Source: an uncultured Verrucomicrobia subdivision 3 bacterium (GTDB lineage Bacteria > Verrucomicrobiota > Verrucomicrobiia > Limisphaerales > UBA11358). Taken from it: DNA of 63,431 bases. The position numbers and the translations under genes were made by a program. Within the stretch, counting starts at the first letter, position 1. Every line of letters begins with the position of its first letter. The DNA lies in NCBI GenBank assembly GCA_903911825.1, contig CAIWFB010000050.1:1-63431 (forward strand), read 5' to 3'. This document shows, piece by piece, positions 11,101-56,590 of this stretch. Below the pieces are notes generated by a model. The model made no database searches. It saw nothing but the letters and a program-made list of their open reading frames with translations, and was not told where the DNA came from.

Positions 11101-11566
11101 GGATGGGGGCACGGTGGTAATGACCAATGTTGGAGCTACGCCATTTGCAGCTGGTCAATCATTTAAGTTGTTCGGCACGCAGCCTTCTGATGGATCGTTC
11201 AATCCTGACATTTTCCCGCTGAACACAACTAACGCGCTTCCAATCATGGTCCCGGCCCATCCTGCATTTGGCCTAGATTGGGATTTGAGTCAGGTTATCT
11301 ATGATGGAACGGTAACAATTGTTGCCTCCGCTTTGCCGCAGACTCCTACTAATATCGTCTTATCAACTTCTGGTAATACCATGACGCTTTCATGGCCTAC
11401 CGAATACACTGGTTGGCGTCTGCTTTCGCAAACGAATACTTTAAGTATCGGGTTGAGCACTAATTGGGCAATAGTAGGTGGTTCGACCACTAATAATTCA
11501 GTAACCATCACTAACAACCCTGCTAATCCGTCTGTCTATTACAAGTTGTCGTATCCTTATCCGTGA
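8138..11566 (+). CDS. Large G/T/N/S-rich secreted beta-helix/autotransporter-repeat-like surface protein with C-terminal sorting-like domain
   Basis: Signal peptide ending ASAFA; W..SANWSGGVP..GDDV.F and VWKG...WD....NW...F.DGD.V.FND motifs; degenerate LNKYGTG repeat; no autotransporter barrel; C-terminus LSWP..YTGWRL...W...VYYKL. Confidence 0.85.
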   Translation: MIKTKFKTRSQGVRVIARKCLLASMMLGSMLLGASAFAQTVTLTNISGFKVFAGGGGYSGSYTNVQIRAVLTGDFTTVLNPVTLSVSGAPAGLTTVFLTNNFTGSQTLFLNFGVTNVAKGVYPLTFSATTNGQPIGNTLVIPLIVGTLWTNSNPAGDVTWANSANWSGGVPATGDDVMFQDAGYNTNTLGGSVSLNSLSFIRNLSGTNQNMAIAAGQTVQVLGTNGFAVNVDSFPGNNKTTTVNIFGAGGTLLVSNTAANFTVNGVSTSGTGTTLGMANLDTLKAYVSRFCSGDFTTALQGLVGNGGTSPQGTRLDLAKTNIIYATYVGDYTTTNPILTAISYENHYDGNNGGTAPLNLGLNTTIQADAMIFGQGKSGGSSSAVQINSSFVNLRPSASFRNTNNGRITLLGVAIDSGTTTNTGNNSRMILNLNNVNVDMLVDTIWLGRNRLFSSSPNTLNRGNLLFDWGTINANTIRAGYQAYTGEGLCQADITVGGNSTNTALLVVNTELNLGYTAGDWGAGNAVRNFGRLTIATNGTARVNQVTVGTLSTNNTITIQNGGVLVLSNAVASPVKGLTTLAMTGGSLTLSAVAGTTNIFVTNLTTTVGSKININSLSGFVSYPATNVIIKYDIASDHSSLGIGALPPGFNNLLLNDNTANKTIELIISTNAPQSLVWKGPGSIWDHSSYNWVLATNTSIAAKFTDGDKVIFNDTAGVPTAITISEIVAPSQTGIGISFTNSVNNYVFTSTSPNGISAGSLNKYGTGSVQMDAFANVTAQINAGKLFGSGVLASVVTANSTFFGWSGQVMGSSSIGGGATNSGTLSSVTVSAGGSLTNNGTISGTFTVNTNALLYNNGTIANLGTSTVDSGGRMVNAAGSITGFSISVSGVFEDAGISPIKLSATASGGQPAGLDIKGGGLFVPGGSGIGTTTVLQTSDNDPLASGNVKFNPGSTNIIKVDPGAAGQKNTKVLSNIQFLGGSHGLPLVADGGTVVMTNVGATPFAAGQSFKLFGTQPSDGSFNPDIFPLNTTNALPIMVPAHPAFGLDWDLSQVIYDGTVTIVASALPQTPTNIVLSTSGNTMTLSWPTEYTGWRLLSQTNTLSIGLSTNWAIVGGSTTNNSVTITNNPANPSVYYKLSYPYP

Positions 11567-11599
11567 GGAAAGAGGCGTAACCAGCTAGTTGTTATTTTC

Positions 11600-11640
11600 A
11601 GCCGGGGTTGAGTTTAAACTTGGCCCCGGCTTTTAATTTT
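11600..11640 (+). terminator. Intrinsic terminator after the prepilin/surface-protein pair
   Basis: agccgggg-ttgagtttaaacttgg-ccccggct hairpin followed by tttaatttt. Confidence 0.75.
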
Positions 11641-11701
11641 CCAAATAAAACGATTTTTTTAATAACCAAAACATTTGTCAAACGTCTGTGTCATCCACGC
11701 C

Positions 11702-13114
11702 ATGAATCGCTACTCGTTTCTGAAGTTCGCCGCTCTCTCGGTGCTATGTATGTTGCCGTCCGTTGTTTCTGCGGCGGTGCCGCTGGCTTTTCCCACGGCG
11801 GAAGGTTACGGACGATTTGCTCAAGGCGGGCGTGGCGGGCGAGTCTTGCACGTCACCAACCTGAATGATTCTGGCCCTGGCAGTTTGCGTGAAGCGGTCG
11901 AAGCGACGGGTTCCCGCACGGTGGTGTTTGATGTGTCGGGCCTGATTACGTTGGAATCGCGTCTCATTATCCGCAAAACCAATTCCGATCTCACTATCGC
12001 GGGCCAGACCGCACCTGGCCAAGGTATCTGCCTGCGCAAATATAATTTCGGAATGTTGGGCGCAACCAATGTCATCATCCGTTATATGCGTGTGCGACCC
12101 GGAAACCTTTCTGGCACCACGCTTGATGGTATGGGCATGGCTTCGGCCAATGATTGTATCATTGACCATTGCTCAATTAGTTGGACGCTGGATGAGGCGT
12201 TCAGTTCGCGCGGAGCGCACAGCATCACCTTGCAACGCACGCTGATTTCCGAGGCCCTTAACGCCGCTGGCCACAAAAAATATCCGCCGGGCACGCAGCA
12301 CGGTTACGCCGCTAGCATCGGTGGCGATGTCGGCAGCTTCCACCATAACCTTCTGGCGAACTGCGAGGGTCGTAACTGGAGTCTGGCGGGTGGGTTGGAA
12401 AAGAAAACCTCCGCCTACGCTGGTCGCATGGATTTGCGAAATAACGTCATTTTTAACTGGAAACACCGTGCGACCGACGGCGGTGCGCATGAGGTCAACT
12501 TCGTCAATAACTTCTACCAACCCGGCCCGGCAACGGATTTTTTCTATGCCCTCAATGCACAATACGGAGGCTTCCCCGGCACGCAGCAATATTATTTTGT
12601 CGGCAACGTTATGCCGGGACATTTTGGTCTGACGAATCAAGAAGTTGGTCGCGAGGCCACCACCGAACGGGGAGGGAAAATTCCCGTGGAGTATTCGCCG
12701 TGGGTTGATAAAGAATTTTTTCCGTCATTCGTGAAAACGCAGAGTGCCGCCGAGGCCTACACGAATGTCCTCGCCGATGTTGGTTGTAATTTCCCGGCGC
12801 TGGATGCCCACGACCAACGCATTATCGCCGAAGTTCGCAGCGGTATTCCCAAATTCAAAGGCAGCAAAACTGGCTTGCCCGGTTTACCGGATTCTCAGGA
12901 CGACGTGGGTGGCTGGGATGATTATCCGGAAGTTCATCGAGCCGCTGATTGGGATACGGACGGAGACGGCATTCCCGACGCTTGGGAAAAATCTCACGCA
13001 CTGAACCCAAAAGATGCCAGTGATGCGAACAAAGATTTGAACGGCGATGGCTATACGAATCTCGAAAAATATCTCAACTCGCTCGTCGGCGAATACTCGC
13101 TGGCCAAGCACTGA
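11702..13114 (+). CDS. Pectate lyase, PL1 (subfamily 2-like), secreted
   Basis: AFPTAEGYGRFAQGGRGG, VTNLNDSGPGSLR, TIAGQTAPG, IIDHCSISW..DE, C-terminal DTDGDGIPDAWE and DGYTNLEKYLN. ATG at 11702. Confidence 0.92.
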   Translation: MNRYSFLKFAALSVLCMLPSVVSAAVPLAFPTAEGYGRFAQGGRGGRVLHVTNLNDSGPGSLREAVEATGSRTVVFDVSGLITLESRLIIRKTNSDLTIAGQTAPGQGICLRKYNFGMLGATNVIIRYMRVRPGNLSGTTLDGMGMASANDCIIDHCSISWTLDEAFSSRGAHSITLQRTLISEALNAAGHKKYPPGTQHGYAASIGGDVGSFHHNLLANCEGRNWSLAGGLEKKTSAYAGRMDLRNNVIFNWKHRATDGGAHEVNFVNNFYQPGPATDFFYALNAQYGGFPGTQQYYFVGNVMPGHFGLTNQEVGREATTERGGKIPVEYSPWVDKEFFPSFVKTQSAAEAYTNVLADVGCNFPALDAHDQRIIAEVRSGIPKFKGSKTGLPGLPDSQDDVGGWDDYPEVHRAADWDTDGDGIPDAWEKSHALNPKDASDANKDLNGDGYTNLEKYLNSLVGEYSLAKH

Positions 13115-13117
13115 TCC

Positions 13118-14812
13118 ATGAAGAATAAAATAATTTTTGCGGCGATAGTCTCGCTCGCATCCCAATTTGTTTCCGCTCGCGAAAACTGGCCAGTTCCTGA
13201 TGAGGCCATCAAAGCGCGTGAAGCCGCCTTGAATCACTACGAGCAGGACCTCGTCGCCCAACTAGCTCCCCAACTGGCGGAATGGGAGAAAAAGGGCAAA
13301 CCGTTTATTCCGTGGGCTGCGTTGCCGTCTGATTTGCCGCAGGCAACAGTTCCGGCGTTTCCCGGCGCGGAAGGCGGCGGCAAATTTTCCTTCGGCGGCC
13401 GAGGCGGGAAAATTTTTGTCGTGACGAATCTGAATGACAGTGGGCCGGGAACATTGCGTGAGGCGTGCGAATCTGCCGGACCGCGTATCGTGGTGTTCAA
13501 TATTGCGGGCATCATTCATTTGGCGAAGCCGGTTTATATTGAAGCGCCTTATCTCACGATTGACGGGCACACTGCGCCCGGTGATGGCATTTGCATCGCG
13601 GACAACGGTTTGGTGGACAACGCCCATGACGTGGTGATTCGCTACCTGCGTTTGCGCCGAGGAAATCTGGACATCTTCAATCGTCACGGCGTGCATTACG
13701 GCAGTCCCATCGGCAATATCATTCTCGATCACATCTCGGCGAGCTGGGGGCAGGATCAAAATATTGATACTTACCGCCACATGTATCAGCCGACGAACGG
13801 CGGCCCGGCGCTCAAACTACCGGCGGTCAACGTGACGATTCAGTGGACCATCACCAGTGAAGCTTTGAATACCTACAATCATGCGTTCGGTGGCGATTGG
13901 GGCGGACGCAACTCCGGCTTTCATCACAATCTTTTCGCCTGCAACACCGGGCGCAATCCCAGCGTGGCGATGACTTATGATTTTAATTTCGTCAACAATG
14001 TGCTGTTCAACTGGCGGCATCGCACGATTGACGGCGGCGACAAGGACAGCCAATACAACATCATCAACAACTATTTCAAGCCCGGTCCGGCGGCGAACAA
14101 TGGGCCGATTGCGTATCGCATTTTGCAGCCCTCCGCCACGCAGAAAAAGCCGGATCTGATTCCGTATTTTGGCAAGGCTTACGTCGCGGGCAACATCATG
14201 GAGGGAAATGAAAAAGTGACGGCTGACAATTGGGCGGGCGGCGTGCAATTTTCCGACGGCGGCTCCAAGGACGACCCGACCATCAACACCAACGAGTCCA
14301 TGAAAAAAATCGTCGCGCAAGTGCGCGTGGACAAAGCGTTCCCGATGCCGCAGATCACGATGACTTCCGCACAACAGGCGTTTGACGATGTGCTAAAAAA
14401 TGCTGGCGCCAATCTGCCGCGCCGCGATGCCGTGGACGAACGCGTGGCCAACACCGTTCGCACCGGCAAGGTTTGGAGCGCGGGCAAAGAATTCCTGCCG
14501 CCACAGCCGGAGGGTCTTGCGAAAAATAATTACGGCAAAGCTGGTAACGGCATTATCACCGACGTTTCTCAAGTTGGCGGCTATCCTGAATACAAAGGTG
14601 AACCGATCAAAGATTTGGGTGCGGATGGAATTCCGCTGTCGTGGAAAAAGAAATTTAATCTTGATGCGAACGACGCATCGCTCGCGCAAAAAGATTTGCA
14701 GGGCGACGGCTACACGGTCATGGATAAATATCTGGCCGACCTTGATCCAACTAAAAAAATTGATTGGAGCAAGTCTGATAGCAACGTGAACACGCTTACC
14801 GGGGCCCGTTGA
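13118..14812 (+). CDS. Pectate lyase, PL1, secreted
   Basis: AFPGAEGGGKFSFGGRGG, VTNLNDSGPGTLR, DHISASWG.D, HHNLFACNTGRNPS. Confidence 0.9.
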   Translation: MKNKIIFAAIVSLASQFVSARENWPVPDEAIKAREAALNHYEQDLVAQLAPQLAEWEKKGKPFIPWAALPSDLPQATVPAFPGAEGGGKFSFGGRGGKIFVVTNLNDSGPGTLREACESAGPRIVVFNIAGIIHLAKPVYIEAPYLTIDGHTAPGDGICIADNGLVDNAHDVVIRYLRLRRGNLDIFNRHGVHYGSPIGNIILDHISASWGQDQNIDTYRHMYQPTNGGPALKLPAVNVTIQWTITSEALNTYNHAFGGDWGGRNSGFHHNLFACNTGRNPSVAMTYDFNFVNNVLFNWRHRTIDGGDKDSQYNIINNYFKPGPAANNGPIAYRILQPSATQKKPDLIPYFGKAYVAGNIMEGNEKVTADNWAGGVQFSDGGSKDDPTINTNESMKKIVAQVRVDKAFPMPQITMTSAQQAFDDVLKNAGANLPRRDAVDERVANTVRTGKVWSAGKEFLPPQPEGLAKNNYGKAGNGIITDVSQVGGYPEYKGEPIKDLGADGIPLSWKKKFNLDANDASLAQKDLQGDGYTVMDKYLADLDPTKKIDWSKSDSNVNTLTGAR

Positions 14813-14816
14813 TTTC

Positions 14817-16496
14817 ATGAAAACTAATTTACTCATTCTGTCGCTCGTGCTGGTTTCAGTAGTTTCGTCCCGCGCCCAATATCCCACGATTTCTTCCGCC
14901 ATCTCCGCCGAGGCGAAAGCGAAACAATCTGCCGCCGATCAGCGTTCGGACGAAGCGTTTGCCAAAGCGCAGCCCGCCATCAAAGCTTGGGCGGCCAAGG
15001 GGAAACCGTATCTGCCCGGTGCGGCGGAGCCGAAAGATTTGCCACAGGCGAGTGTGCCTTCATTTCCCGGCGCGTGGGGCGGCGGTATGTATTCCTTTGG
15101 CGGCCGTGGCGGAACCACTTTTATAGTTACAAATCTGGCCGACAGCGGTGCGGGAACTTTTCGCGAAGCGTGCGAAGCCAGTGGCCCGCGCACCATTGTT
15201 TTCAACGTGGCAGGCATCATTCATCTCCAGGACCGTATCCGCATCCGCGCGCCTTACATCACCATCGTAGGCAACACCGCGCCGGGTGATGGCGTGTGCC
15301 TCGCGGGCAATACGGTTGAATTGGAGACGCATGATGTGGTGATCCGCTACATGAGATTTCGTCGCGGCGCGACGGACGTGGGCGACCGCAATGATTCACT
15401 GGGTGGCAACCCGACGGGCAACATCATGATTGATCACGTCTCGGGGAGTTGGGGTTTGGATGAAAATATGTCCATGTATCGCCACATGTATCAACCGCCC
15501 GAGGGCGGCAAGGAATTGAAACTGCCCACGGTCAATATCACGATGCAGAACTGCATTTTCAGCGAAGGTTTGAATACCTATCACCACGCGTTCGGCAGCA
15601 CCATCGGTGGATTGAACAGCACGTTTCATCACAATCTCTGGGCGTGTAATACGGGCCGCAACCCGAGCGTGGGCATGATCGGGGATTTCACCTTCATCAA
15701 CAACGTCGTCTTTAACTGGGTTCACCGCACGGTGGATGGCGGCGATCACCGCAGCTATTACACGATTGAAAATAATTATTTCAAACCCGGACCTGCTACG
15801 CCCACGGACAAGGAAATCGGCTGGCGTTTGCTGAAGCCGGAGTCTGAGCGCAGCAAAACGGTGCAGGATCATTTCGGCATCGCCTACGTCCACGGCAACA
15901 TTGTCGAAGGCAACGCTAAGGTCACAGCTGATAATTGGGACGGCGGAGTGCAGCCGGACGTGAAAGTGGAATCACTTAAGGAGGCTCTGGCAAAAATTCG
16001 CACCGATATTCCGTTTCCGCACGCGCCGCTGCCCATGCAGACTGCCGATAAAATTTTCGCCACCGTCCTTGCGAATGCGGGCGCAACCTTGCCGGTTCGC
16101 GATGCCGTGGATAAACGCGTCACCGAGATGGTTCGCACCGGAAGAGTTGCCACTCAGGTTGATGCGGACGTCGCAGTTGAGGCTAGCCGCACGGGTTATT
16201 CCAAAGCGGCGCAGGCTGAATTACAGCGGTTGGCCAAGCTTGGACTGATCACTAGCCCAGCGCAGGTTGGTGGTTATCCTGAATACAAGGGCGAGCCTTA
16301 TACCGATCTCGGCGCAGATGGTATTCGTAAATCGTGGAAGGAAAAATATCACCTTGATCCGAACGACGCCGGACTCGCCAGTAAAGATTTGCAGGGCGAC
16401 GGTTACACGGTCATCGAGAAATATCTCTACGACCTCGACCCGACGAAGAAATTTGATTGGGCGGCCCTGCAAGCCAACGTCAATCCCGCGAAGTGA
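14817..16496 (+). CDS. Pectate lyase, PL1, secreted (paralogue of 13118..14812)
   Basis: FPGAWGGGMYSFGGRGG, DHVSGSWGLDE, HHNLWACNTGRNPS; shares the DLGADGI...DLQGDGYT tail with the preceding gene. Confidence 0.9.
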   Translation: MKTNLLILSLVLVSVVSSRAQYPTISSAISAEAKAKQSAADQRSDEAFAKAQPAIKAWAAKGKPYLPGAAEPKDLPQASVPSFPGAWGGGMYSFGGRGGTTFIVTNLADSGAGTFREACEASGPRTIVFNVAGIIHLQDRIRIRAPYITIVGNTAPGDGVCLAGNTVELETHDVVIRYMRFRRGATDVGDRNDSLGGNPTGNIMIDHVSGSWGLDENMSMYRHMYQPPEGGKELKLPTVNITMQNCIFSEGLNTYHHAFGSTIGGLNSTFHHNLWACNTGRNPSVGMIGDFTFINNVVFNWVHRTVDGGDHRSYYTIENNYFKPGPATPTDKEIGWRLLKPESERSKTVQDHFGIAYVHGNIVEGNAKVTADNWDGGVQPDVKVESLKEALAKIRTDIPFPHAPLPMQTADKIFATVLANAGATLPVRDAVDKRVTEMVRTGRVATQVDADVAVEASRTGYSKAAQAELQRLAKLGLITSPAQVGGYPEYKGEPYTDLGADGIRKSWKEKYHLDPNDAGLASKDLQGDGYTVIEKYLYDLDPTKKFDWAALQANVNPAK

Positions 16497-17728
16497 ACGG
16501 CGGCGCGCAAAAATTTTCTTCTTACGCTTGGGTGGTCGTGGCGTTGCTGTGGCCGGTGGTCTTGCTGAATTATCTCGACCGGCAGATGGTCTCCGCGATC
16601 CGCGCCTCGATTCGCGCGGACATTCCGAGTATCGCGAACGATCAGGATTTCGCCATGCTCATGGCGACGTTCATGTGGGTGTATGCGTTCTTGAGTCCGG
16701 TCGGCGGATTCATCGCCGATAAATTTAACCGCCGCTGGACGGTCATCGGTAGCTTATTCGTCTGGTCGGCGGTGACGTGGGCCACGGGGCACGCGCAGAC
16801 GTATTCGGAGATGCTGACGCTGCGCGCGCTCATGGGCATCAGCGAGGCGTTTTATATTCCAGCAGCGCTCGCGCTCATCGCGGATTTCCATACTGGCGGC
16901 ACGCGGGCCAAGGCGATTGGCATTCATCAAAGCGGTATTTACGTCGGCCTCGCATTGGGCGGCATCGGCGGCTATATCGCGCAAACCAGTTCGTGGCGAA
17001 ATTGTTTCACTTGGTTTGGAGCGGCGGGCGTGGCTTACGCCGTGGTGCTGTTGTTTGCTCTGCGCGATACGGAAAAACAAAATTCTGCTACGGCAAAAGC
17101 CCCCATCCGTATTGGTGAAACCTGCCGTGCGCTCTGGTCGCAACCGGCTTTCTGGATTCTGGTGGTTTATTTTACGCTACCCGCTATAGCTGGCTGGGTG
17201 ACGAAGAACTGGCTGCCAACGTATCTTGCAGACACGTTCCATCTCCAGCAAGGCCCGGCGGGCTTGTCAGCCACGGGCTATATTCAAATCGCCTCTTTTG
17301 TTGGCGTCTTGCTCGGTGGTGTGGTTGCCGACTGGTGGATGCGCCGGACGAATCGCGGCCGAATTTTTACGAGTGCCCTCGGCGTGCTACTCCTGGTGCC
17401 CGCACTGCTCGGCCTTGGTTATGCGGAAAGTCTGGCGATGGCGATTGGCGCGATGATTCTGTTCGGTATCGGTTGGGGTTTTTTCGACTGCAACAACATG
17501 CCCATCCTCTGCCAGATCGCGCGGCCGGAACATCGCGCCACCGGCTACGGCTTTATGAACCTCGTGAGCATCAGCGTGGGTGCGGGGGCGACTGTTGTGC
17601 TTGGCTGGATGCGCGACCATGGCATCAAGTTTTCCGTCGCGTTCGCGGTGTCAGCGGCGGTGGCATTGTTGAGCGCCGCTTTGATTTTGCTCCTCAAACC
17701 TAAGACCGATAACTTTGAACAAGCTTGA
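16493..17728 (+). CDS. MFS transporter (sugar-acid/ACS-like)
   Basis: LLNYLDRQ, GGFIADKFNRR, RALMGISEA, about 12 hydrophobic segments. GTG start overlaps the upstream TGA. Confidence 0.9.
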   Translation: MNGGAQKFSSYAWVVVALLWPVVLLNYLDRQMVSAIRASIRADIPSIANDQDFAMLMATFMWVYAFLSPVGGFIADKFNRRWTVIGSLFVWSAVTWATGHAQTYSEMLTLRALMGISEAFYIPAALALIADFHTGGTRAKAIGIHQSGIYVGLALGGIGGYIAQTSSWRNCFTWFGAAGVAYAVVLLFALRDTEKQNSATAKAPIRIGETCRALWSQPAFWILVVYFTLPAIAGWVTKNWLPTYLADTFHLQQGPAGLSATGYIQIASFVGVLLGGVVADWWMRRTNRGRIFTSALGVLLLVPALLGLGYAESLAMAIGAMILFGIGWGFFDCNNMPILCQIARPEHRATGYGFMNLVSISVGAGATVVLGWMRDHGIKFSVAFAVSAAVALLSAALILLLKPKTDNFEQA

Positions 17729-17729
17729 A

Positions 17730-18656: not shown

Positions 18657-18660
18657 GCTG

Positions 18661-30594: not shown

Positions 30595-30677
30595 ATTAGC
30601 CGCGCAATTTTCTCAAATCATTTCGCAGAAATTAGCAATCAGAACGTGTCGCTGCCATGGTATCTTTGGCGTATTCC

Positions 30678-33482
30678 ATGAAATCATTTTGCCGTTATCT
30701 TCGTTGGCTTGGCTGCTTAGGTTTGGCGACCGGCTGTGTTGGCGCAGGTGAACTCAAGGTGGACATCAATCGGGATAGCAAGAATTTGGATAACGCTACG
30801 GAAGTCAATTATACCAAGTGGAGTGCGGATGCTTCTGGCGGCGCCACGACGGGCACGAATGCTGCAACTAAGGTTTTCACGACGGCTTCTAATGAAACTG
30901 TTAGCATCAGCTTTTCACAGACCGCTGCTTCCGCCAGTCGCGGCGGCACGGGATTATTGAGCGGTTGGTATCAGATCGGCGCGCAAGGCACGGCCAAACT
31001 TGTTTCTGATGGCTTTAGTGTGGCCCCCGCTGCGCTGGCTACGGGAGGAGAAATTCAGATGACGATCACGGGGCTTTTCCCCGGCCATCACACGCTGCTG
31101 ACTTATCACAATCAATGGGACGCAACCAACAATGGCGGTGTGCCGACCTTTTCGGGGCCGCTGGATATTTTTCTGAATGGCACGCAGATGGTGGACAATC
31201 TTCAGCCTACGATTCGCGCCGTGAACAATGTCGCTGCTCCGGTGGCGTATCTTGAATTTGATGTCGCTAGCACCAATGATGTCACCACGATTATTTTCGC
31301 GGCGGAGACGAATACTGTCAGCCCTGTCACTATTAAAAATCCGATGATCAATGGGTTTGAAATAGATACGCCCAATTCCACGCGCGTCGCCAACACGCCG
31401 AGTCCAGCCGACGGCGATGAGCACGTTAATGCTGATTCTGACAGCGCCATTTTAAGTTGGTCCGCAGCCACGGCCAGCAATGCGGTTTCGCACACGGTTT
31501 ATTTTGGCACGAATTTAGCGGCCGTGAAAAATGCGACGCCGGTTTCCGCTGAATTCAAAACGAATCAAATCGGCACAAATTACTCCGTCACGGGTTTAAA
31601 AAGTTTGCTGACGTATTACTGGCGCGTGGATGAAATTGATTCAGTGGGCAACGCCACCAAGGGAACGGTCTGGATGTTTCGTCCGCGTCATCTGGCGTTT
31701 CCAGGCGCGGAAGGCTACGGCCGATTTGCGCGCGGCGGGCGCGGCGGCGTGGTGATTGAAGTGACGAACACGAATGACAGCGGGCCCGGCAGTTTGCGTG
31801 ATGCGCTGACAAATAATTACGGCCCGCGCACCGTCGTTTTCGCGGTGTCGGGACTGATCACGTTGGAATCCGATTTGATCATCAGCCAATTCAATCCCTA
31901 CATCACGCTGGCGGGCCAGACTGCGCCGGGTAAAGGAATTTGCACGCGCAAATATCAACTTGGCATCAGCGGGGGGCGCGACCTCATCGTGCGACACGTT
32001 CGTTCGCGGCCGGGCAATATTTCTGGCACGACATTGAACGGCTCCGGCATGAGCGGCAGCGACCATTGCATCATGGATCATATTTCCATCAGCTGGGGTA
32101 TTGATGAGGAATTGAGCACTCGCACTTCCAAGAATATCACGTTCCAGCGCTCGCTCATTTCTGAGGCGCTGAACATTGCAGGCCATCAAAATTATCCAGC
32201 CGGCACGGCGCACGGTTACGCGGCGAGCGTGGGCGGCGACGTGGCCAGCTTGCATCATAATCTGCTCGCGCATAACGAAGGTCGTAACTGGAGCCTGGCG
32301 GGCGGACTGGATGCGGCGGCAAATTTCGCGGGGCGTCTCGATATTTTCAATAACGTCGTTTACAACTGGGGCCATCGCACGACCGACGGCGGCGCGATGC
32401 AGGTCAACTTCGTCGCCAACTACTACAAGCCCGGCGCGGCCTCGACTTTTTTCTACGCGCTGAACGCGCAATACGACAATTTCCCCGGCACGCAGCAATA
32501 TTTTTTCACGAACAACGTCATGCCGGGGCATTTCGGATTGTCGAATCAATCCGTCGGGCGCGAAGCCACTCCGGGCACCGGCAGCGTGCCGACGAATTAT
32601 CCCGTCTGGGTGGGCTCACCGTTTTTTCCGTCCTATGCCACGATCGATACTGCCACGAACGCCTACAAACTCGTGCTCTCGGATGTTGGCTGCAATCAGC
32701 CGCTGATCGACGACCACGATGCGCGCGTGATTCGTGAAACGATTGATGGCACCTACACCTATACCGGCACTGGGCCGTATGGCGGCTCGCCCGGTTTGCC
32801 GAATTCGCAGGACGATGTTGGCGGCTGGGAAAATTATCCTGCGGTGCAGCGTCCCGCCGGCTGGGACAGCGACCATGATGGCTTGCCTGATTGGTGGGAA
32901 CTGGCGAAAGGCCTGAACCCCAATTCACCGCCTGGAGATTTTTCCGACAGCAACGGCGATCCCGACGGCGATGAATTCACGAACCTCGAAGATTACTTGA
33001 ACTGGCTCGCGGCGATTCACATCGACGGCACCCGGAACACGAATGTTGATTTGGATCTGACGCAGTTCACGCGCGGTTTCACCAACAACTCGCCGGTGTA
33101 TTTCGTTTCCAATCCGACGAACGGCACGGTGGCGCTCATCGGTGGAAAAGTGGCGCGCTTCACGCCCACGGCCAATTTCTATGGCCTCGGCAGCTTCCAA
33201 TTCAAAGTGACCGACGCGCAAGGCGCATCCGTGACGAACATTGTGGGCGTTCACGTGCGAGCCTTGCCGATCTCACAGTTGAGTTTGCTGCTGACGAACG
33301 GCGCGCCACAACTGCGCCTGACTGGCGAATCGGGAATGTATTATCTCATGCAGTCTTCGGATGATTTGAAAACTTGGATGACTTGGACGAACGCCACGGT
33401 GGCAGCTTCTGCGAAAATTTTCGCGCCACCCGGATTTCCGAATCCACAAGCACGCTTTTATCGGGCAATCTCAGTGCAATGA
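30678..33482 (+). CDS. Multidomain PL1 pectate lyase (N-terminal beta domain, FN3-like, PL1, cadherin/Ig-like, C-terminal sorting-like domain)
   Basis: YYWRVDE; AFPGAEGYGRFARGGRGG; catalytic part closely similar to 11702..13114; PTNGTV...FTP..NF.G..SF.F.VTD; C-terminal Y..QSS.DL..W...FYRA. Confidence 0.9.
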   Translation: MKSFCRYLRWLGCLGLATGCVGAGELKVDINRDSKNLDNATEVNYTKWSADASGGATTGTNAATKVFTTASNETVSISFSQTAASASRGGTGLLSGWYQIGAQGTAKLVSDGFSVAPAALATGGEIQMTITGLFPGHHTLLTYHNQWDATNNGGVPTFSGPLDIFLNGTQMVDNLQPTIRAVNNVAAPVAYLEFDVASTNDVTTIIFAAETNTVSPVTIKNPMINGFEIDTPNSTRVANTPSPADGDEHVNADSDSAILSWSAATASNAVSHTVYFGTNLAAVKNATPVSAEFKTNQIGTNYSVTGLKSLLTYYWRVDEIDSVGNATKGTVWMFRPRHLAFPGAEGYGRFARGGRGGVVIEVTNTNDSGPGSLRDALTNNYGPRTVVFAVSGLITLESDLIISQFNPYITLAGQTAPGKGICTRKYQLGISGGRDLIVRHVRSRPGNISGTTLNGSGMSGSDHCIMDHISISWGIDEELSTRTSKNITFQRSLISEALNIAGHQNYPAGTAHGYAASVGGDVASLHHNLLAHNEGRNWSLAGGLDAAANFAGRLDIFNNVVYNWGHRTTDGGAMQVNFVANYYKPGAASTFFYALNAQYDNFPGTQQYFFTNNVMPGHFGLSNQSVGREATPGTGSVPTNYPVWVGSPFFPSYATIDTATNAYKLVLSDVGCNQPLIDDHDARVIRETIDGTYTYTGTGPYGGSPGLPNSQDDVGGWENYPAVQRPAGWDSDHDGLPDWWELAKGLNPNSPPGDFSDSNGDPDGDEFTNLEDYLNWLAAIHIDGTRNTNVDLDLTQFTRGFTNNSPVYFVSNPTNGTVALIGGKVARFTPTANFYGLGSFQFKVTDAQGASVTNIVGVHVRALPISQLSLLLTNGAPQLRLTGESGMYYLMQSSDDLKTWMTWTNATVAASAKIFAPPGFPNPQARFYRAISVQ

Positions 33483-45498: not shown

Positions 45499-45506
45499 AA
45501 CGAATC

Positions 45507-48000: not shown

Positions 48001-48017
48001 CGGCTACACTATTAGTT

Positions 48018-49354: not shown

Positions 49355-49398
49355 GGCAAAATAACTACTTCATTTTTGCGCCAAGTAAAGGCGGGAAG

Positions 49399-49986: not shown

Positions 49987-49987
49987 A

Positions 49988-50887: not shown

Positions 50888-50896
50888 GGGGGGAAA

Positions 50897-50994
50897 TTTA
50901 GCCACAGATGGACACAGATAAACACAGATGGGAAAACTGGTGGTCTTTATTGTGGAATTTCACTGTGTGCATCTGGGTTAATCTGTGGTTAAAA
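50897..50994. repeat. ~100-bp inverted element with 10-bp-periodic arms, copy 2
   Basis: tttagccacagatggacacagataaacacagatg ... cactgtgtgcatctgggttaatctgtggttaaaa. Confidence 0.85.
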
Positions 50995-52267
50995 CTTTTT
51001 TCAACGCGGTGACCGCGTGGGTTAGTTGGGCTTTGGTGATGGTCAGCGGCGGCGTGAAGCTGATGATGTTGCCGTGTTCGCCTTCGGGTAAAAAAATGTA
51101 GCCGAGGTGGAGCAATTGTTTGATGGCTTTAAGGGCAACTTCGGTGGCGGGCTGGCCGTTGGGCAAGGTGAGTTCTACGCCGACCATCAGGCCGCAGCCG
51201 CGATTGGAGTTTTTATTTTTTAATTTTGAATTGTTGATTGAGCCAAGCTCGTTCAGTAAAAATTTTCCAAGCGTCGCACTCCGTTCGCACAGTTTGAGGC
51301 GGCGAATTTCCGCGATTTGCGCCAGCGCCATCGCGCAGCCGACGGGATGGCCGAGAAAGGTGCTGGTGTGGATGGCTTCGCCGTTCGAGATGGGCCATGC
51401 GGCATCCATCAAATCGGCTCGACCCACGCAGGCGGACAACGGTAAGCCGCCGGTGAGCGCTTTGCCGAGACAAATTAAATCCGGTGTCACCCCGCTGTGT
51501 TCGCAGGCGAACCATTTGCCAGTGCGCCCGAAGCCGGTGTAAATCTCATCGAGAATCAATAACGCGCCGTGTTCATCGCAAAGCTGGCGGAGCAGGGGGA
51601 GAAATTCTAGGGGCGGAATATTGGTGCCGCCGCGCGCTTGAATGGGTTCGAGGAGAATCGCGCCAATTTTTTCGCGGCGGAAAAGTTGGCGGATGGCTTT
51701 TTCGGTCTGGGCAAGCTCTTCAGTTTGCGTGGGATATTTTACAAAGTTACCGAACTCGCGCAGTTGGGATTTGAACGGGCGGCGAAAATGTTCACGATGT
51801 GTGGCGTTTAACGCACCGTAGCCTAGGCCGTGATACGCGCCCTCGAAAGCGATGACGCCGCGCTTGCCGGTTGCGAGCATGGCGGTCTTGAGCGCGGATT
51901 CGACGGCTTCAAAGCCGGAGTTGGAGAAGATAACTTTGCCAGTTTTTTTGCCCCAACGTCCGAAGGTGAGGCGGCTCAATTCGCAGGCAAGCTGCGCTTT
52001 GAGTGCGTGCGGATGCACATCGCCCATCGCGTGCAGTAGTTTTGCCATCTGCTTTTGGCCGGCGCGAACGACGTTTGGGTTCGCATGGCCAGCGGCGGCG
52101 ACGCCGAAGGCGGCGGTGAGATCTAAATATTTTTTGCCTTCCGCATCCCAGACGTGAACGCCTTGGGCGCGTTCCCAAACAATCGGCCACGAGCCATCGG
52201 GATCGAGGAACGTGATGTTCCGCGACTCGAAGATGCGCAGCTGGGTAATGATTTTCTGGGTTTTCAT
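50978..52267 (-). CDS. Class III PLP-dependent aminotransferase
   Basis: GKKYLD, NSGFEAVESALK, FEGAYHG, EPIQARGG, DEIYTGFGRTG, LGKALTGG. Confidence 0.93.
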   Translation of the reverse strand: MKTQKIITQLRIFESRNITFLDPDGSWPIVWERAQGVHVWDAEGKKYLDLTAAFGVAAAGHANPNVVRAGQKQMAKLLHAMGDVHPHALKAQLACELSRLTFGRWGKKTGKVIFSNSGFEAVESALKTAMLATGKRGVIAFEGAYHGLGYGALNATHREHFRRPFKSQLREFGNFVKYPTQTEELAQTEKAIRQLFRREKIGAILLEPIQARGGTNIPPLEFLPLLRQLCDEHGALLILDEIYTGFGRTGKWFACEHSGVTPDLICLGKALTGGLPLSACVGRADLMDAAWPISNGEAIHTSTFLGHPVGCAMALAQIAEIRRLKLCERSATLGKFLLNELGSINNSKLKNKNSNRGCGLMVGVELTLPNGQPATEVALKAIKQLLHLGYIFLPEGEHGNIISFTPPLTITKAQLTHAVTALKKVLTTD

Positions 52268-52268
52268 T

Positions 52269-52365
52269 TTTAGCCACGGATGGACAAAGATTCACACAGA
52301 TGGGGAAAATTTCCATCCGTTGCGAACCTGAATCTTTGATGATCTGTGTGCATCTATGGTTTCAA
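52269..52365. repeat. ~100-bp inverted element with 10-bp-periodic arms, copy 3
   Basis: tttagccacggatggacaaagattcacacagatg ... atctttgatgatctgtgtgcatctatggtttcaa. Confidence 0.85.
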
Positions 52366-53105
52366 ACTCCGCGTTGTTCCGGCGGCCAGATGACTTTGTG
52401 TTGCTGGATCTGAAAGCGCACGGGCAAAGCATCGGCGATAATTTTTTCCACCAGTTCAACGCGTGAAATGGGCGTGAGTCCGGCGGGAACTTTTTTGAGC
52501 ACTTTATTCTGCTGCTCCGGAGTGAGCGGATGCACCCACGAAAACAGGAGCGGGCAGATGGCGTCGAGCTTGTGCGTGGCAATCTGCTGCTTGGCCCAGT
52601 CGTAATCTTCCTGCGTGCCGATGACGAATTTGATTTCGTCCGTGGCTTTCAGGTGTGGGAGATTTTCAAAACGGTTGCGGGCGACTTCACCGCTGGTGGG
52701 GCATTTCAGATCCACGATGCGATGCACACGCGGATCAATCTTAGAAACGTCGTGCGCGCCGCTGGTTTCGATGAGCACGGTGAAGCCCGCATCGCACAGC
52801 TGCTGCATGAGCGGTAGCGAATTTTTCTGGAGCAACGGTTCGCCGCCGGTGAGTTCGACGAGGGGCAATTTGAGATTTGAGATTTGAGATTTGAAATCCC
52901 CGAACGATGCGGCTTGTCGTTTCACTTCCGCGAGAATGTCCGTGAGCGTCTGTTTTTTGCCTTCCGTAAAAGCGTAGGCGGTGTCGCAGAAAGAACAGCG
53001 GAGGTCGCAGCCCGTGAGACGGATAAAAATACACGGGAGCCCAGCAAAAGTGCTTTCCCCTTGCAGGCTGAGATAGATTTCGTTGACGAGGAGCGTTTCG
53101 GACAT
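52362..53105 (-). CDS. queE: 7-carboxy-7-deazaguanine synthase (radical SAM)
   Basis: EIYLSLQGE, FIRLTGCDLRCSFCDT, TGGEPLLQ, IETSG, DEIKFVI, QQHK.IW. Confidence 0.92.
   Translation of the reverse strand: MSETLLVNEIYLSLQGESTFAGLPCIFIRLTGCDLRCSFCDTAYAFTEGKKQTLTDILAEVKRQAASFGDFKSQISNLKLPLVELTGGEPLLQKNSLPLMQQLCDAGFTVLIETSGAHDVSKIDPRVHRIVDLKCPTSGEVARNRFENLPHLKATDEIKFVIGTQEDYDWAKQQIATHKLDAICPLLFSWVHPLTPEQQNKVLKKVPAGLTPISRVELVEKIIADALPVRFQIQQHKVIWPPEQRGV
52866..52897 (-). repeat. 7-bp tandem array (caaatct) within queE
   Basis: Plus strand caatttg agatttg agatttg agatttg aaat, encoding FKSQISNLKL. Confidence 0.8.
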
Positions 53106-53355
53106 CGGGCATAAAAATATCGCAAGGGGCAAAATTAAACAGGATTTTTCGACGAAGAAGCGGATTTGAATTCAGGACATTTCTGTCTATAAAATTGGCG
53201 GCAGCCTTTTCCTTTTTCTGAAATCGGGGAGCAAAAAGTTCCCTAATTTACGGATTTTTTTTCCGAAAGCGGCAAGGTTTTCCTGAGCCAAAAATTGTTT
53301 CAAATAATTCGCTGCGCGGGCTTCAGTCTTCGGTTTTTCTTCCGAAAAACAGTCG

Positions 53356-54909
53356 GTGAAATGCGTCGTTTTAGCGCGAATATGGCTGGTTGTTTTGGTG
53401 GGCTTTTGGCCGACTTCAGGAACTCTGCGGGCGGGTGATCTTGAGGTGATTGGCGGGGCGTTGATCCAATCCTTGGTGACCAACCTTGATGGCGCGGGTG
53501 TGGCGGTGCTGCAGCCGGAAGCGGGGGAGTCGGCAGCGACCAATTGGCAGGTGAATCCCACTGTGCTCGGTCAGCAAAACGAAGTCTTCACGTATTCGGC
53601 CAGTGGTGGTTCCACGAATCAATTTCCCAATACGCTGGGCGGAAGTTCTAGTCACGCGGGCGCGGTGGCAAAAAATTTTCACGCGCTGGCACCGGGTAGT
53701 CTTCGTTTGGATAATTGCGAGGCGAGTTATTTTTACAGTTCAATTGTTTCGCAGTTGGCGACTAATTTTAACAACCCGCTGGCCAATCAGAGCTTCACTT
53801 TTGGAAATGTTTCGGCGAGTGCGCAGCAGACGATTGATTGGAATTATGATAACTACGCTTCGCAATATAATACGCTCTTCATTTCGGCAGCGAACAATGG
53901 TGGCACCGTCAGTCCGCCCGCCACTAGCTACAATGGTTTGGCGGTGGGTGCTTACAACGGGAGCTCCAGCGTGGGGCCAACGATTGATAATGGACGGGCC
54001 AAACCAGATTTGACGGCTCCCGGCAGTTCGACGAGCTATTCCACCCCACTCGTCACGGGGGCGGCGGCGTTGTTGCGGCAAGCCGCCGTGCGCGGCGATG
54101 GTGGTGACACGAATGCGGCGGCGGATCTGCGCGTGACCAAGGCGTTGCTCCTAAACGGCGCTATCAAGCCGGCGGGTTGGACGAACCAATTTCCATCGCC
54201 TTTGGATAAACGCTACGGTGCGGGCGTGGTGAACGTCTTCAATTCCTATCGCCAATTGACCGCCGGGAAAAAAAATCCGAGTGCGATGTTTTTTACGGCC
54301 ACGAATAGTGCGCATGGCGTGGCGGGAAGCGCGAATCCCATCAATGCCTTGAGCGGTTGGGATTACAATACCAACTCAAGCGTCGCGGGGAGCAACGGCG
54401 TGAGCCATTATTTCTTCAATGTTACTAATGGGATTGCCGAAGCCACCTTCACGGCTACGGCGACGTTGGTGTGGAACCGCCATTTGCGTAAAACGGGTAT
54501 CAACAATCTGGATCTATATCTGTATGAGGCCGATTCCGGCGCGTGTGTGGCGGTCAGCGCGAGTTTGGTGGACAACGTAGAACATCTCTATCTGCCCCGG
54601 CTGATGCCTGGGCGTTACGATCTGCAAGTTGTAAAAAATGGGGGCACTATGATCAGCGCCACTGAGCCGTATGCGTTGGCGTTTGAATTTTTCTCAATGC
54701 CGCTCAAGGTCGCGCCCTCAGCCAATGGTCTAGTGCTGACATGGCCGGTTTATCCGACAGGCTTTACGTTGCAGATGGCGACCAATCTGGTGCCGCCTTT
54801 GGTTTGGACGCCGCTGACAAATGTAACCGTGCTAGTCACCAATAATGAAAATTGCGCGGTAGTTTCGCCAACTGAGGGCACTCAAATTTTCCGATTGAGT
54901 CGCCAGTGA
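53356..54909 (+). CDS. Secreted S8 subtilase-like protein, atypical triad, with C-terminal sorting-like domain
   Basis: VAVLQPEAG, SHAGAVA, SAANNG, GRAKPDLTAP, TSYSTPLVTG, KALLLNGA, YGAGVVN. Confidence 0.82.
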   Translation: MKCVVLARIWLVVLVGFWPTSGTLRAGDLEVIGGALIQSLVTNLDGAGVAVLQPEAGESAATNWQVNPTVLGQQNEVFTYSASGGSTNQFPNTLGGSSSHAGAVAKNFHALAPGSLRLDNCEASYFYSSIVSQLATNFNNPLANQSFTFGNVSASAQQTIDWNYDNYASQYNTLFISAANNGGTVSPPATSYNGLAVGAYNGSSSVGPTIDNGRAKPDLTAPGSSTSYSTPLVTGAAALLRQAAVRGDGGDTNAAADLRVTKALLLNGAIKPAGWTNQFPSPLDKRYGAGVVNVFNSYRQLTAGKKNPSAMFFTATNSAHGVAGSANPINALSGWDYNTNSSVAGSNGVSHYFFNVTNGIAEATFTATATLVWNRHLRKTGINNLDLYLYEADSGACVAVSASLVDNVEHLYLPRLMPGRYDLQVVKNGGTMISATEPYALAFEFFSMPLKVAPSANGLVLTWPVYPTGFTLQMATNLVPPLVWTPLTNVTVLVTNNENCAVVSPTEGTQIFRLSRQ

Positions 54910-54934
54910 GCTGGAATTTTAGCGGGGATGGCTT

Positions 54935-56590
54935 ATGCTTCGGCCAGTTCCGATGATAAAACATTTTTGGCATTGCCTGGTGCTGGTGACGTTCTGGAAC
55001 AGCTTAACCGCGCACGGCGGGGCGACGTTGGATGTGATCGGCGTCAGCGCCTTGCGTGCGATCACGACCAACCTCGACGGACGGGGCATTCGCGTGGCGC
55101 AGCCCGAGGCGTCCGGTCAGAACGACACCAATTTTGAGGTGAACCCAAATTTCATTGGGCAGCCGCAAAGTCTCTTTACCTATATTTCGGCAGCCGGCAC
55201 GGATACGAATTTCCCCAACCTCGTCGGCGGCTATTCGGGGCACGCGAAAGATGTGGGTAACACTTTTTACAGTCCCATTTTTTTTGGGGTAGCGACGAAT
55301 CTCGCGCACGTGGATAATTTCGACGCTAATTATTTTTATACGAACTACATTGGCTTACCGAGTCTCACCGCCATTGGCGATGCGATTGTGAATCAAAGTT
55401 TCACGTTCGGAAATGTCGTGACCAACTTGCCCACCCCGGCCAATCAGATTTCCGTGGCCGATCAGCAACAAGTGGATTCGGAATACGACAACTACGCGGA
55501 GCAAAACCACACCCTGTTCATTTCCGCTGTCAACAATGGCGGTTCAGTCAGTCCGCCGGGAACAGCTTACAATTCCATCGGCGTGGCCGCCTTTGCCCTG
55601 CCGCCGTATGGGGGCAGTTCTAGTATCGGGCCGACGGTGGACAATGGTCGTTGCAAGCCCGATATCACTGCGCCGGCGGATTATACCAGTTTTTCCACGC
55701 CGCAAATCGCGGGGACGGCGGCGCTGCTATTGCAAGCCGGGTTACGTGGCGATGGCGGCAGTGACACGAATGCCGCCGCCGACATTCGCGTGCTGAAAGC
55801 GTTGCTATTAAATGGTGCCGTGAAGCCGTTGAACTGGACGAATGGTGCGGCCACCCCGCTGGATGCGCGCTACGGTGCTGGCGTGGTGAATGTGCTAAAT
55901 ACTTACCAGCAACTTGCCGGTGGCAAGCATGGCTACACGGTTTCCGTGTCCGTTTCCACGGGCGCCGCGCATCCGCCGACGGGCGCGACTGGCACCGTGA
56001 GCGTCTTGAGTGGTTGGGATTTTAATACTAATTCCAGCAGCGTGCCGAATGACGGGGTGAACCACTATTATTTCAACGTCACGAACAGCGTGGCCGGACA
56101 AAAATTTCTCGCCACGGCCACGTTGACTTGGAATCGGCATTACAACGCGACCTATTTGATTAGCCCTGCTAGTATCAATGATCTCAACCTATTTCTCTAC
56201 AACTGTGCCAACAGTAATCTCGTGATGTGCAGCACCAGCCTCGTGGACAATGTCGAACATCTTTACGTCACTAATCTGGCGCAGGGCCGCTACGATTTGC
56301 AGGTTTTGAAACGCGGCGGCCTCGGCACGGTGAGCAACAGCGAAGCGTATGCGCTGGCGTTTGAATTTGTCGCCCCACCGTTGTTGACGGTCAGCGCGGG
56401 CACCAATTCTGGCTTGGGGTGGCCAATTTATCCGGCGGGATTTTTAGTAGAGGCGCGCACGAATCTGCTCGCCGGTGCTTGGCAAACCAATGGCGTGCCG
56501 GAGGTAATTTTTACGAATGGTCAGAGCAACATCCGGTTGAGCACGACGAATGCGCAGCAGTTTTTCCGGTTGCGGCGGCCGCATTTTTGA
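54935..56590 (+). CDS. Secreted S8 subtilase-like protein, paralogue of the preceding gene
   Basis: IRVAQPEAS, GHAKDVG, SAVNNG, GRCKPDITAP, TSFSTPQIAG, KALLLNGA. Confidence 0.85.
   Translation: MLRPVPMIKHFWHCLVLVTFWNSLTAHGGATLDVIGVSALRAITTNLDGRGIRVAQPEASGQNDTNFEVNPNFIGQPQSLFTYISAAGTDTNFPNLVGGYSGHAKDVGNTFYSPIFFGVATNLAHVDNFDANYFYTNYIGLPSLTAIGDAIVNQSFTFGNVVTNLPTPANQISVADQQQVDSEYDNYAEQNHTLFISAVNNGGSVSPPGTAYNSIGVAAFALPPYGGSSSIGPTVDNGRCKPDITAPADYTSFSTPQIAGTAALLLQAGLRGDGGSDTNAAADIRVLKALLLNGAVKPLNWTNGAATPLDARYGAGVVNVLNTYQQLAGGKHGYTVSVSVSTGAAHPPTGATGTVSVLSGWDFNTNSSSVPNDGVNHYYFNVTNSVAGQKFLATATLTWNRHYNATYLISPASINDLNLFLYNCANSNLVMCSTSLVDNVEHLYVTNLAQGRYDLQVLKRGGLGTVSNSEAYALAFEFVAPPLLTVSAGTNSGLGWPIYPAGFLVEARTNLLAGAWQTNGVPEVIFTNGQSNIRLSTTNAQQFFRLRRPHF

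Follow-up and report, generated by a model that had tools for sequence, protein, structure and literature searches.

The stretch of DNA analysed here (the window, 63,431 nucleotides) belongs to a 3.9-Mb draft genome, 91.5% complete, of soil or freshwater Verrucomicrobia, and four of its forward-strand genes end in copies of one small domain, hereafter the tail. The first gene (8138..11566, called as an open reading frame) encodes a giant adhesin-like exported protein of 1142 aa that has no Pfam or NCBIfam match, and paralogues of which, in the same BLAST cluster, carry PATR repeats; its tail (copy 1, aa 1075-1139, 11360..11554) is of the 'canonical' subtype, WPxE/DxxGWxL ... VYYKLSYPYP-stop. 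The second (30657..33482) encodes a multidomain PL1-like pectate lyase of 941 aa, assigned from Pfam and NCBIfam (PelZ-like by NCBIfam, E 7e-25), in which a Big_9 module (aa 798-864) precedes tail copy 2 (aa 877-938, 33285..33470, E 8e-10), the most divergent of the window's four. The remaining two, identified by open reading frame calls and Pfam, are tandem paralogous S8 subtilase-like proteins, 54% identical to each other: one of 517 aa (53356..54909; tail copy 3, aa 452-516, 54709..54903) and one of 551 aa (54935..56590; tail copy 4, aa 485-548, 56387..56578). All four open reading frames named in the initial annotation exist and carry the tails that it described, the domain envelopes falling inside its ranges; signal-peptide-like N-termini can be read from all four translations, as it had stated, and its description of three unrelated families is borne out by a PL1-like lyase, two S8 subtilases and a giant without any Pfam match.

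Directly upstream of the giant's gene, and co-directional with it, lies a gene for a type IV pilin-like protein of 276 aa (7217..8047, forward strand), recognised by its prepilin N-terminal methylation motif and an invariant H-x9-DG. Three PL1-like paralogues (11675..16496, forward strand; 479, 564 and 559 aa), tail-less and with signal-like N-termini, form a natural comparison set for the lyase. The contrast between tailed and tail-less PL1 proteins that had been drawn from the sequence is a real one: the paralogue at 11675-13114 shares 60% identity and a signal-like N-terminus with the tail-bearing lyase, but stops after a TSP3-like region, without Big_9 or tail. Within the window's pectin/RG-II locus, the tail is found only on the lyase, the giant and the proteases, and is absent from the exo-acting GH78, GH127, GH141, GH43, apiosidase-like, DUF6298 and alpha-galacturonidase-like genes.

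The four window tails constitute a single domain family of about 64 residues, with pairwise identities of 16-25%. A hidden Markov model built from these four alone, and run against the genome's 12,676 open reading frames of at least 80 aa, added 34 proteins at a domain E < 1e-3, with the domain ending 0-5 residues before the stop in 32 of them. After four iterations the family comprised 95 carriers, each with one copy, of which 91 have the domain end within 10 residues of the stop and four have internal or N-terminal copies. A profile made from the 91 copies outside the window recovered all four window tails (E 3.1e-12 for copy 1, 1.3e-8 for copy 4, 2.4e-8 for copy 3 and 1.7e-6 for copy 2), and the same profile gave no match at E <= 1e-3 in the reversed set of open reading frames. 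The claim that the four tails share one domain thus holds, as does the expectation that a proteome scan would return mostly C-terminal matches on signal-peptide proteins of many unrelated families. By a crude heuristic of our own, 62 of the 79 complete carriers have a signal peptide, compared with 37% of 2263 background open reading frames; among the 17 misses, several either show a clear signal peptide on inspection or begin at the edge of a contig.

The ends of these proteins are constrained as well. They read ...[FY][FY]R[LV]xxP, without a hydrophobic helix; 51 of 91 carriers have exactly three residues between the [FY][FY][RK]x motif and the stop, and 62 of 91 end in proline, compared with 10% of the 2263 background frames.

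The carriers belong to extracellular types of protein: PATR adhesin-like giants, PL1, PL4, GH28, GH51 and GH16 enzymes, S8 proteases and multihaem cytochromes. A large module-sharing cluster accounts for 53 of them, and the eight scanned carry PATR, PL4, GH28 or GH51; in this sample some carriers have CBM-like Laminin_G_3 modules adjoining the tail. Among the 42 carriers outside the cluster, 40 were scanned (two short fragments were left out) and yielded 35 Pfam families at E <= 1e-5, including S8 (five members), PKD, GH16, SASA esterase, BNR, LRR_5, FG-GAP, dockerin and multihaem/MtrC-like cytochromes. Ordinary Ig, FN3 and Big modules of tail-bearing proteins sit internally. In the S8 family, the terminal copy is kept in 120 of the 120 best homologues of the 517-aa subtilase (51-77% identical), a pattern that, from sequence comparison, we count as a sign of probable selection.

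An AlphaFold2 model of tail copy 1 (pLDDT 86.4) is all-beta, with six strands and no G strand, and the domain is accordingly predicted to be a compact FN3-like beta-sandwich of about 64 aa. Structural matches are weak: the best by Foldseek are FN3 monobodies (E 0.05, TMq about 0.5), and those by VIA-align are cytokine-receptor and tissue-factor FN3 modules (Z up to 6.2; rmsd 3.3 A over 73 aligned residues, or 2.8 A over 66), at values that are common for unrelated sandwiches. No Pfam or NCBIfam model covers the domain (44 tails and the four full proteins scanned), which answers the comparison with curated families that the initial annotation had proposed; Pfam fn3 (PF00041) matches three of the 44 tails, at best with E 0.055, below the Pfam threshold. 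With the tail profile as query, no PDB sequence scored better than E 0.087, the ESM Atlas returned only unnamed Verrucomicrobiota clusters of 67-76 aa, and a full-text literature search, whose scope did not extend to subscription journals and supplementary files, found no paper on the domain.

Of 401 genomes sampled from the phylum, 146 have matches to the domain, and worldwide it matches 52,685 cluster representatives. Its terminal position recurs outside this genome: at 80 loci in other genomes, found with an alignment of the canonical subtype and so representing one subtype only, the stop lies within three codons of the match in 78, and 83 of 84 open reading frame segments are terminal; among the 150 top representatives worldwide, the last copy is terminal in 127. 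A few matches among the other-genome loci bear non-Verrucomicrobia labels (metagenome-assembled genome records). In other lineages arrays of 2-16 tandem copies also occur, again at the end of the protein, with a period of about 72 aa, Pro-rich linkers of 5-12 aa in the four arrays that were read, and, over all 430 junctions, a median inter-copy gap of 19 aa. Such arrays, with their short Pro-rich linkers, are typical of avidity-based binding repeats. The terminal proline resembles the start of such an inter-repeat linker, and for this reason may be the sign of a domain boundary and not a site of recognition. Internal array copies are the same six-strand unit as terminal ones; an open edge is therefore no peculiarity of terminal copies, and the idea that the missing G strand signifies donor-strand docking is speculation.

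We tentatively favour the reading, to which we assign somewhat less than an even chance, that the tail is a non-covalent address or docking module that holds its cargo at the cell surface. Verrucomicrobiota would append the domain to the extreme C-terminus of Sec-exported, extracellular-type proteins; after export by Sec, and then probably by a secretin-based route across the outer membrane (three secretins are present in this genome), the tail would bind a shared envelope component, a putative receptor, and so retain adhesin-like giants, polysaccharide lyases and hydrolases, proteases and cytochromes on the surface. We also count in its favour that PATR passengers are present, yet an autotransporter barrel (PF03797) was not found in the genome, 91.5% complete, by a search that matched its controls in E. 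coli, Caulobacter and B. thetaiotaomicron; the remark that the four window proteins have no barrel of their own is thereby upheld. The terminal position could partly reflect easy shuffling of domains at the 3' end of genes.

A larger version of the docking reading is more doubtful. In it, the tail would be the address tag of an undescribed Verrucomicrobiota envelope sorting or docking system, in which a receptor, or homotypic edge-to-edge pairing with scaffold tail arrays, captures adhesins, CAZymes, proteases and cytochromes at the surface, coupled in the Limisphaerales-like lineage of this genome to H-x9-DG pilin-like proteins. The proteins so captured would amount to roughly 3% of the proteome, and such a system would be the Gram-negative counterpart of the dockerin-cohesin or T9SS-CTD principle.

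The tail might instead have no address function, and be a generic FN3-like structural cap, spacer or ligand-binding (for example, glycan-binding) module that was placed last by chance. The weak fold matches are to FN3 modules and a few tails touch Pfam fn3, tandem arrays act like stalks, and in some carriers a CBM-like Laminin_G_3 already stands beside the tail. Such modules, however, do not keep to the final 70 residues of unrelated cargo proteins in >95% of cases, and neither the constrained end nor the retention of the tail in every one of the best S8 homologues fits chance placement. We judge this explanation rather unlikely; and if the tail is a structural module only, its strict terminal rule still needs explaining.

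Improbable, in our estimate, is that the tail is a translocation signal which an outer-membrane export system recognises in the periplasm and which is perhaps then cleaved, whether as an analogue of the T9SS CTD or as a recognition element for a secretin-based T2SS. Strict terminal position, a single copy per protein in this lineage and some 95 signal-peptide cargoes would suit a signal, as would the size and beta-sandwich class of the tail, which resemble those of the T9SS CTD, and the failure to find autotransporter barrels in the genome. Secretins occur in this genome and in nine of ten other tail-positive genomes tested, with 5-13 secretin matches in tail-rich genomes, but they are near-ubiquitous and their presence does not discriminate. 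Against a signal, none of the 44 tails matches Por_Secre_tail/TIGR04183 at E <= 1, and searches of the genome for SprA and Por_Secre_tail, neither with a positive control, returned nothing. No translocation signal is known to form tandem arrays of 2-16 copies; the arrays of other lineages are easier to reconcile with a module for binding or retention than with one for export. The initial annotation had proposed a targeting domain for an export or anchoring system: the terminal position and the diversity of exported cargo agree with targeting, whereas no machinery was found and the arrays speak for binding rather than export.

The search for partners of a docking module gave one candidate in the genome neighbourhood, the pilin-like family; the other clustered neighbours are only response regulators, GFO/IDH oxidoreductases, GH2-like hydrolases and sensor kinases. 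In this genome, 18 of 94 tail genes adjoin a pilin-like gene, compared with 47 of 3220 other genes (Fisher p 5e-14) and with 14 of 374 when the other genes are those of 600 aa or more; 17 of the 18 pairs are co-directional, including the window pair of 7217-8047 and 8138-11566. At the 80 canonical-subtype loci of other genomes, a pilin-like gene lies downstream of the tail stop in 32, starting about 0-575 nt past it and mostly under 250 nt, where genome density predicts about 0.07 pilin-like genes per locus. Across the 401 genomes, however, 28 have both, 118 the tail only, 111 the pilin only and 144 neither (the pilin search scored at most seven candidates per genome with one subfamily profile); moreover, 19 tail loci in 14 more distant genomes all lack a prepilin motif within 3 kb downstream, and the window's enzyme carriers have no pilin neighbour. 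The pilin-like family was thus rejected as a general receptor, being neither co-distributed with the tail in the phylum nor present at the distant loci, and its linkage is kept as lineage-specific. A complex prediction for the globular part of the pilin-like protein (aa 43-276) with the giant's tail gave no answer (scores 0.00 and 0.00, run without controls) and is evidence neither way. That the tail docks onto the adjacent H-x9-DG pilin-like protein, a type IV filament or pseudopilus then displaying or expelling the cargo, is accordingly very improbable despite the local linkage. The tail-bearing S8 subtilase, considered as a PorU-like processing enzyme, occurs in 26 of the 401 genomes, compared with 146 for the tail, and is too rare to be the machinery; both partner candidates thus failed the phylogenetic profiling that had been suggested as the way to the machinery.

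Verrucomicrobiota are major polysaccharide degraders in soil, freshwater and the sea, and they position enzymes and adhesins at the outer membrane surface or beyond it by means that are still poorly understood. A domain that closes about 95 proteins in a single 3.9-Mb genome, and is absent from Pfam and NCBIfam, represents a large annotation blind spot. If it is an address or docking tag, it provides a sequence rule that predicts the surface proteome of the phylum, a handle on the receptor or machinery through pull-downs with the tail, and a tool for surface display.

Several known systems resemble the tail in part. Autotransporters share with it the PATR-repeat giants as a major cargo class, but the PATR giants here end in the 64-aa sandwich and not in a C-terminal 12-stranded barrel. 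PEP-CTERM/exosortase is likewise a C-terminal tagging system for exported proteins, occurs in the same phylum, and coexists with the tail in this genome, which has two exosortases, three PEP-CTERM matches by the NCBIfam model and 11 matches (about nine convincing) to our own regular expression; by contrast, the tail is a folded domain that lacks a PEP motif, a transmembrane helix and a basic end, TIGR02595 has no match among the 44 tails, and the domain is found on about 95 proteins rather than on about nine small ones. FN3 (PF00041) provides the best fold matches and shares the LxW-P/aromatic-rich strand pattern, but is seven-stranded, whereas the tail is shorter (64 aa, six strands in the model) and confined to the C-terminus.

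The analogy with the type A T9SS CTD of Bacteroidota (PF18962/TIGR04183), drawn in the initial annotation, stands in part. Both are small C-terminal beta-sandwiches on unrelated Sec-exported surface or secreted proteins, dozens per genome, and the tail shares with that CTD its place at the extreme C-terminus of diverse Sec cargo. The resemblance is one of logic only: neither 44 tails at E <= 1 nor the four full proteins match PF18962 or TIGR04183, TIGR04189 and PF18962 have no match in this genome (91.5% complete; neither matched any control genome), and the Verrucomicrobiota tail forms tandem arrays in other lineages. The type I dockerin of cellulosomes (PF00404) is similar in being about 65-70 aa, mostly last, in single copy and on many CAZymes and proteases per genome. 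Its fold is a Ca-binding helical duplicate, whereas the tail is a beta-sandwich in an all-beta model, and PF00404 finds no tail among the 44 at E <= 1; the likeness lies in the suggested logic of docking to a shared surface partner. On the reading that we favour, the logic of the tail would be closer to that of a dockerin, or of a cell-surface-binding repeat, than to that of a cleavable translocation signal.

Four proteins encoded in the window close with the same C-terminal domain of about 64 residues (hereafter, the tail): a giant adhesin-like protein without any Pfam or NCBIfam match (ORF 8138-11566; tail 11360-11554), a PL1-like lyase with a PelZ-like PL1 core and a Big_9 module (30657-33482; tail 33285-33470), and two tandem subtilase-like proteins with an S8 peptidase core (53356-54909 and 54935-56590; tails 54709-54903 and 56387-56578), all on the forward strand. 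The initial annotation had placed these carriers in three unrelated families and given all four signal-peptide-like starts, and both statements hold. The last 70 or so residues of each protein are blank in Pfam and NCBIfam even at E <= 1, and chance had to be excluded, since pairwise identity among the tails is only 16-25%. A profile HMM of the four matched 34 more proteins (domain E < 1e-3) among the 12,676 ORFs of at least 80 aa in the genome (a 3.9 Mb draft in 354 contigs, 91.5% complete, with the window on contig C50), and in 32 of these the match stops 0-5 residues short of the stop codon. Four iterations raised the total to 95 proteins with exactly one copy apiece; in 91 of these, at most 10 residues lie between tail and stop. 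A leave-out profile made from the 91 non-window copies recovered the window tails at E values of 3.1e-12, 1.3e-8, 2.4e-8 and 1.7e-6 and found nothing in the reversed ORF set, which confirms both the shared tail and the predicted proteome-wide pattern. Over the giant gene (window 8001-12000) G+C falls to 0.464, against 0.52-0.56 in the rest of the window, probably reflecting Asn/Thr/Ser-rich repeats. The N-terminus of the PL1 carrier (30657-30760) ends in GLATGC, possibly a lipoprotein-type signal instead of a type I signal peptide.

The profile consensus of the tail reads ...LTLSWP...GYTLQ.STNL....W...(~20 aa)...RFYRL.. up to the stop codon. In 51 of the 91 terminal copies the aromatic-aromatic-basic-x motif is followed by exactly three residues, and the final residue is proline in 62 of the 91 versus 10% of 2263 background ORFs. 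A confident AlphaFold2 model of the giant protein's tail, computed from a 44-tail alignment (pLDDT 86.4, pTM 0.70), has six strands and lacks the last strand of FN3, the chain ending directly past the FYR strand.

The cargo is varied. One single-linkage BLAST cluster, joined through shared modules, takes in 53 of the 95 carriers, and the eight of these that were scanned contain PATR repeats, Laminin_G_3, Ig modules, GH28, GH51 and PL4 (rhamnogalacturonan lyase). Outside it, 40 of 42 carriers (two short fragments were left out) yielded 35 Pfam families at E <= 1e-5, including S8 (five members), PKD (four), GH16, SASA esterase, BNR, GSDH, LRR_5, FG-GAP, SBBP, YDG, dockerin, and multihaem or MtrC-like cytochrome domains; these families are extracellular or surface protein types. 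A crude heuristic called a signal peptide in 62 of 79 complete carriers versus 37% of the background, several of the misses being visible signal peptides or contig-edge fragments. Four exceptions have an internal or N-terminal tail (contigs C157, C12, C235 and C169; loci L121, L128, L134 and L143): the C169 protein is a multihaem cytochrome whose N-terminal copy precedes several CxxCH motifs, and in C157 a domain of about 395 aa continues past the tail.

Across the phylum, a 44-tail profile was positive in 146 of 401 sampled genomes and 84 of 185 genera, figures that are not copy numbers, at most 14 candidates having been scored per genome. Two families are nearly or wholly positive (f6, 24/26; f28, 10/10), and two others and one genus wholly negative (f23, 0/65; f30, 0/24; g8, 0/28). 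The giant protein's canonical subtype (WPxDHLGWxL) has 582 relatives in named genome records; of the 80 kept, nearly all are MAGs under the names Verrucomicrobiota, Limisphaerales, Pedosphaera or subdivision 3, and a few are labelled otherwise (going by record labels only). A stop lies within three codons of the tail match in 78 of these 80 loci, and their ORF segments hold a single copy each, terminal in 83 of 84. Among 1.84 billion cluster representatives, 52,685 proteins matched at E <= 1e-3. The best 150 (P0125-P0274), by construction high-scoring multi-copy proteins, comprise 148 with 2-16 copies, one with a single copy and one without a match by our own HMM (the search tool reported up to 42 stretches), and in 127 no more than 10 residues separate the last copy from the C-terminus. 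The period is about 72 aa in P0125, the array examined, and the median gap over all 430 array junctions is 19 aa. In the four arrays read, every copy closes with an FYR-type strand, and a Pro-rich linker of 5-12 aa comes after it. This makes the six-strand unit autonomous, and the terminal proline may do no more than mark a domain boundary. Several array proteins begin with a membrane-anchor-like helix.

We argue that the tail would be an address or docking device and not a generic spacer, because it obeys a strict terminal rule across unrelated cargo, has a constrained ending, is retained in the conserved S8 family and rides on extracellular cargo. It may tentatively be read as a non-covalent surface docking tag. 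The first three of these features weigh against a generic structural or ligand-binding module, which we consider rather unlikely. As to the S8 family, 1794 of the scored candidate proteins matched at E <= 1e-10, and all 120 of the best 120 homologues keep the terminal tail. Tail-bearing subtilases occur in only 26 of the 401 genomes, which rules them out as a PorU-like processing enzyme; they are cargo. The window pair (53356-56590) and homologues conserve V-x-Q-x-E-A at what we take to be the usual position of the catalytic-Asp motif, as well as the His, Asn and Ser motifs, and the pair matches the Pfam S8 model in its C-terminal two thirds only.

A binding or retention module is also favoured over a cleaved translocation signal, since the tail forms tandem arrays elsewhere, its six-strand unit is autonomous and no T9SS-like signal was found. 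Surface-binding repeats typically form arrays, and we know of no translocation signal that does; that the tail is one seems unlikely. The terminal pattern behind the export or anchoring role first proposed is borne out; the role itself is putative. The genome encodes three secretins and two exosortases. Its PEP-CTERM count is three with the NCBIfam model, and a regex of ours gives about nine convincing tails. The search for an autotransporter barrel came back empty in this 91.5% complete genome, control genomes giving matches, in agreement with the initial annotation that the carriers lack a barrel of their own; searches for SprA and Por_Secre_tail, run without a positive control, gave no match. 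Nine of ten further tail-positive genomes that were tested have secretins, and the tail-rich G203, G062, G137, G071 and G257 stand out by their high number of secretin-family matches (5-13 each); the presence of secretins is compatible with secretin-based export and non-discriminating.

Clustering of neighbours (within three genes of tail genes) returned one enriched family: 38 proteins of about 270 aa, all starting in prepilin fashion; 20 are encoded no more than three genes from a tail gene. Its window member (7217-8047, forward strand), directly upstream of the giant gene, matches N_methyl alone in Pfam and an N-terminal pilin motif alone in NCBIfam; H220, D230 and G231 are invariant in an alignment with relatives and make up the H-x9-DG motif that names this type of pilin-like protein. 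Direct adjacency to a pilin-like gene is seen for 18 of 94 tail genes versus 47 of 3220 others (Fisher p 5e-14; 14 of 374 among other genes of at least 600 aa), and 17 of the 18 pairs are co-directional. A same-strand pilin-like gene lies directly downstream of the tail in 32 of the 80 canonical-subtype loci (L041-L120), versus about 0.07 per locus expected from genome density. Counted from the tail stop, the pilin motif comes after about 30-575 nt and the start of the ORF after about 0-470 nt; for many of these proteins, full-length identity to the window member is 30-43%. The linkage is real; it is specific to this lineage, as the 3 kb downstream of 19 tail loci in 14 more distant genomes contain no prepilin motif. 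A pilin globular-domain profile (one subfamily, at most seven candidates scored per genome) was positive in 139 of the 401 genomes: 28 have both tail and pilin, 118 the tail only, 111 the pilin only and 144 neither. These counts and the distant loci rule out the pilin-like family as a general tail partner, and they make it very improbable that the tail is a pilus docking module, for which the adjacency in both gene sets would speak.

The proposed role as a surface docking tag can be set against the window's pectin/rhamnogalacturonan-II-type utilisation locus (803-46874), which holds two GH78, GH141, GH127, GH43-like, apiosidase-like and alpha-galacturonidase-like genes, DUF6298, DUF3826, four PL1-like lyases, a BNR protein, MFS transporters, an OprB porin, a hybrid histidine kinase and an ECF-type sigma fusion. 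In the window the tail is limited to the giant protein, one of the four PL1 paralogues and the two proteases, a distribution that would suit a split between outer surface and periplasm. The paralogue at 11675-13114, 60% identical to the PL1 carrier and with a signal-like N-terminus, terminates past a TSP3-like region without Big_9 or tail, and the pair is indeed the natural comparison that had been suggested.

No name covering the tail was found in Pfam, NCBIfam, PDB sequences or ESM-Atlas, nor any paper on it in titles and abstract openings, subscription journals and supplements lying outside this scope. New here are a complete census of the tail in one genome, a catalogue of its cargo, the lineage-specific pilin-like linkage with negative phylum-level controls, and the rejection of the S8 family as a candidate machinery. 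Among known folds, Foldseek against the PDB returned FN3 modules alone, with weak scores (E 0.05 at best, TMq near 0.5). VIA-align against 48,161 chains reached Z <= 6.2 to FN3 modules from tissue factor and cytokine receptors (rmsd 3.3 A for 73 residues and 2.8 A for 66), a range in which unrelated sandwiches commonly score. Pfam fn3 touches 3 of 44 tails at E 0.055 or weaker; NCBIfam models gave nothing meaningful for the 44, and PDB sequences nothing below E 0.087 with the tail profile. We describe the tail as a compact FN3-like sandwich and do not assign it to PF00041; its sequence scores below family level, and its fold matches to FN3 are weak.
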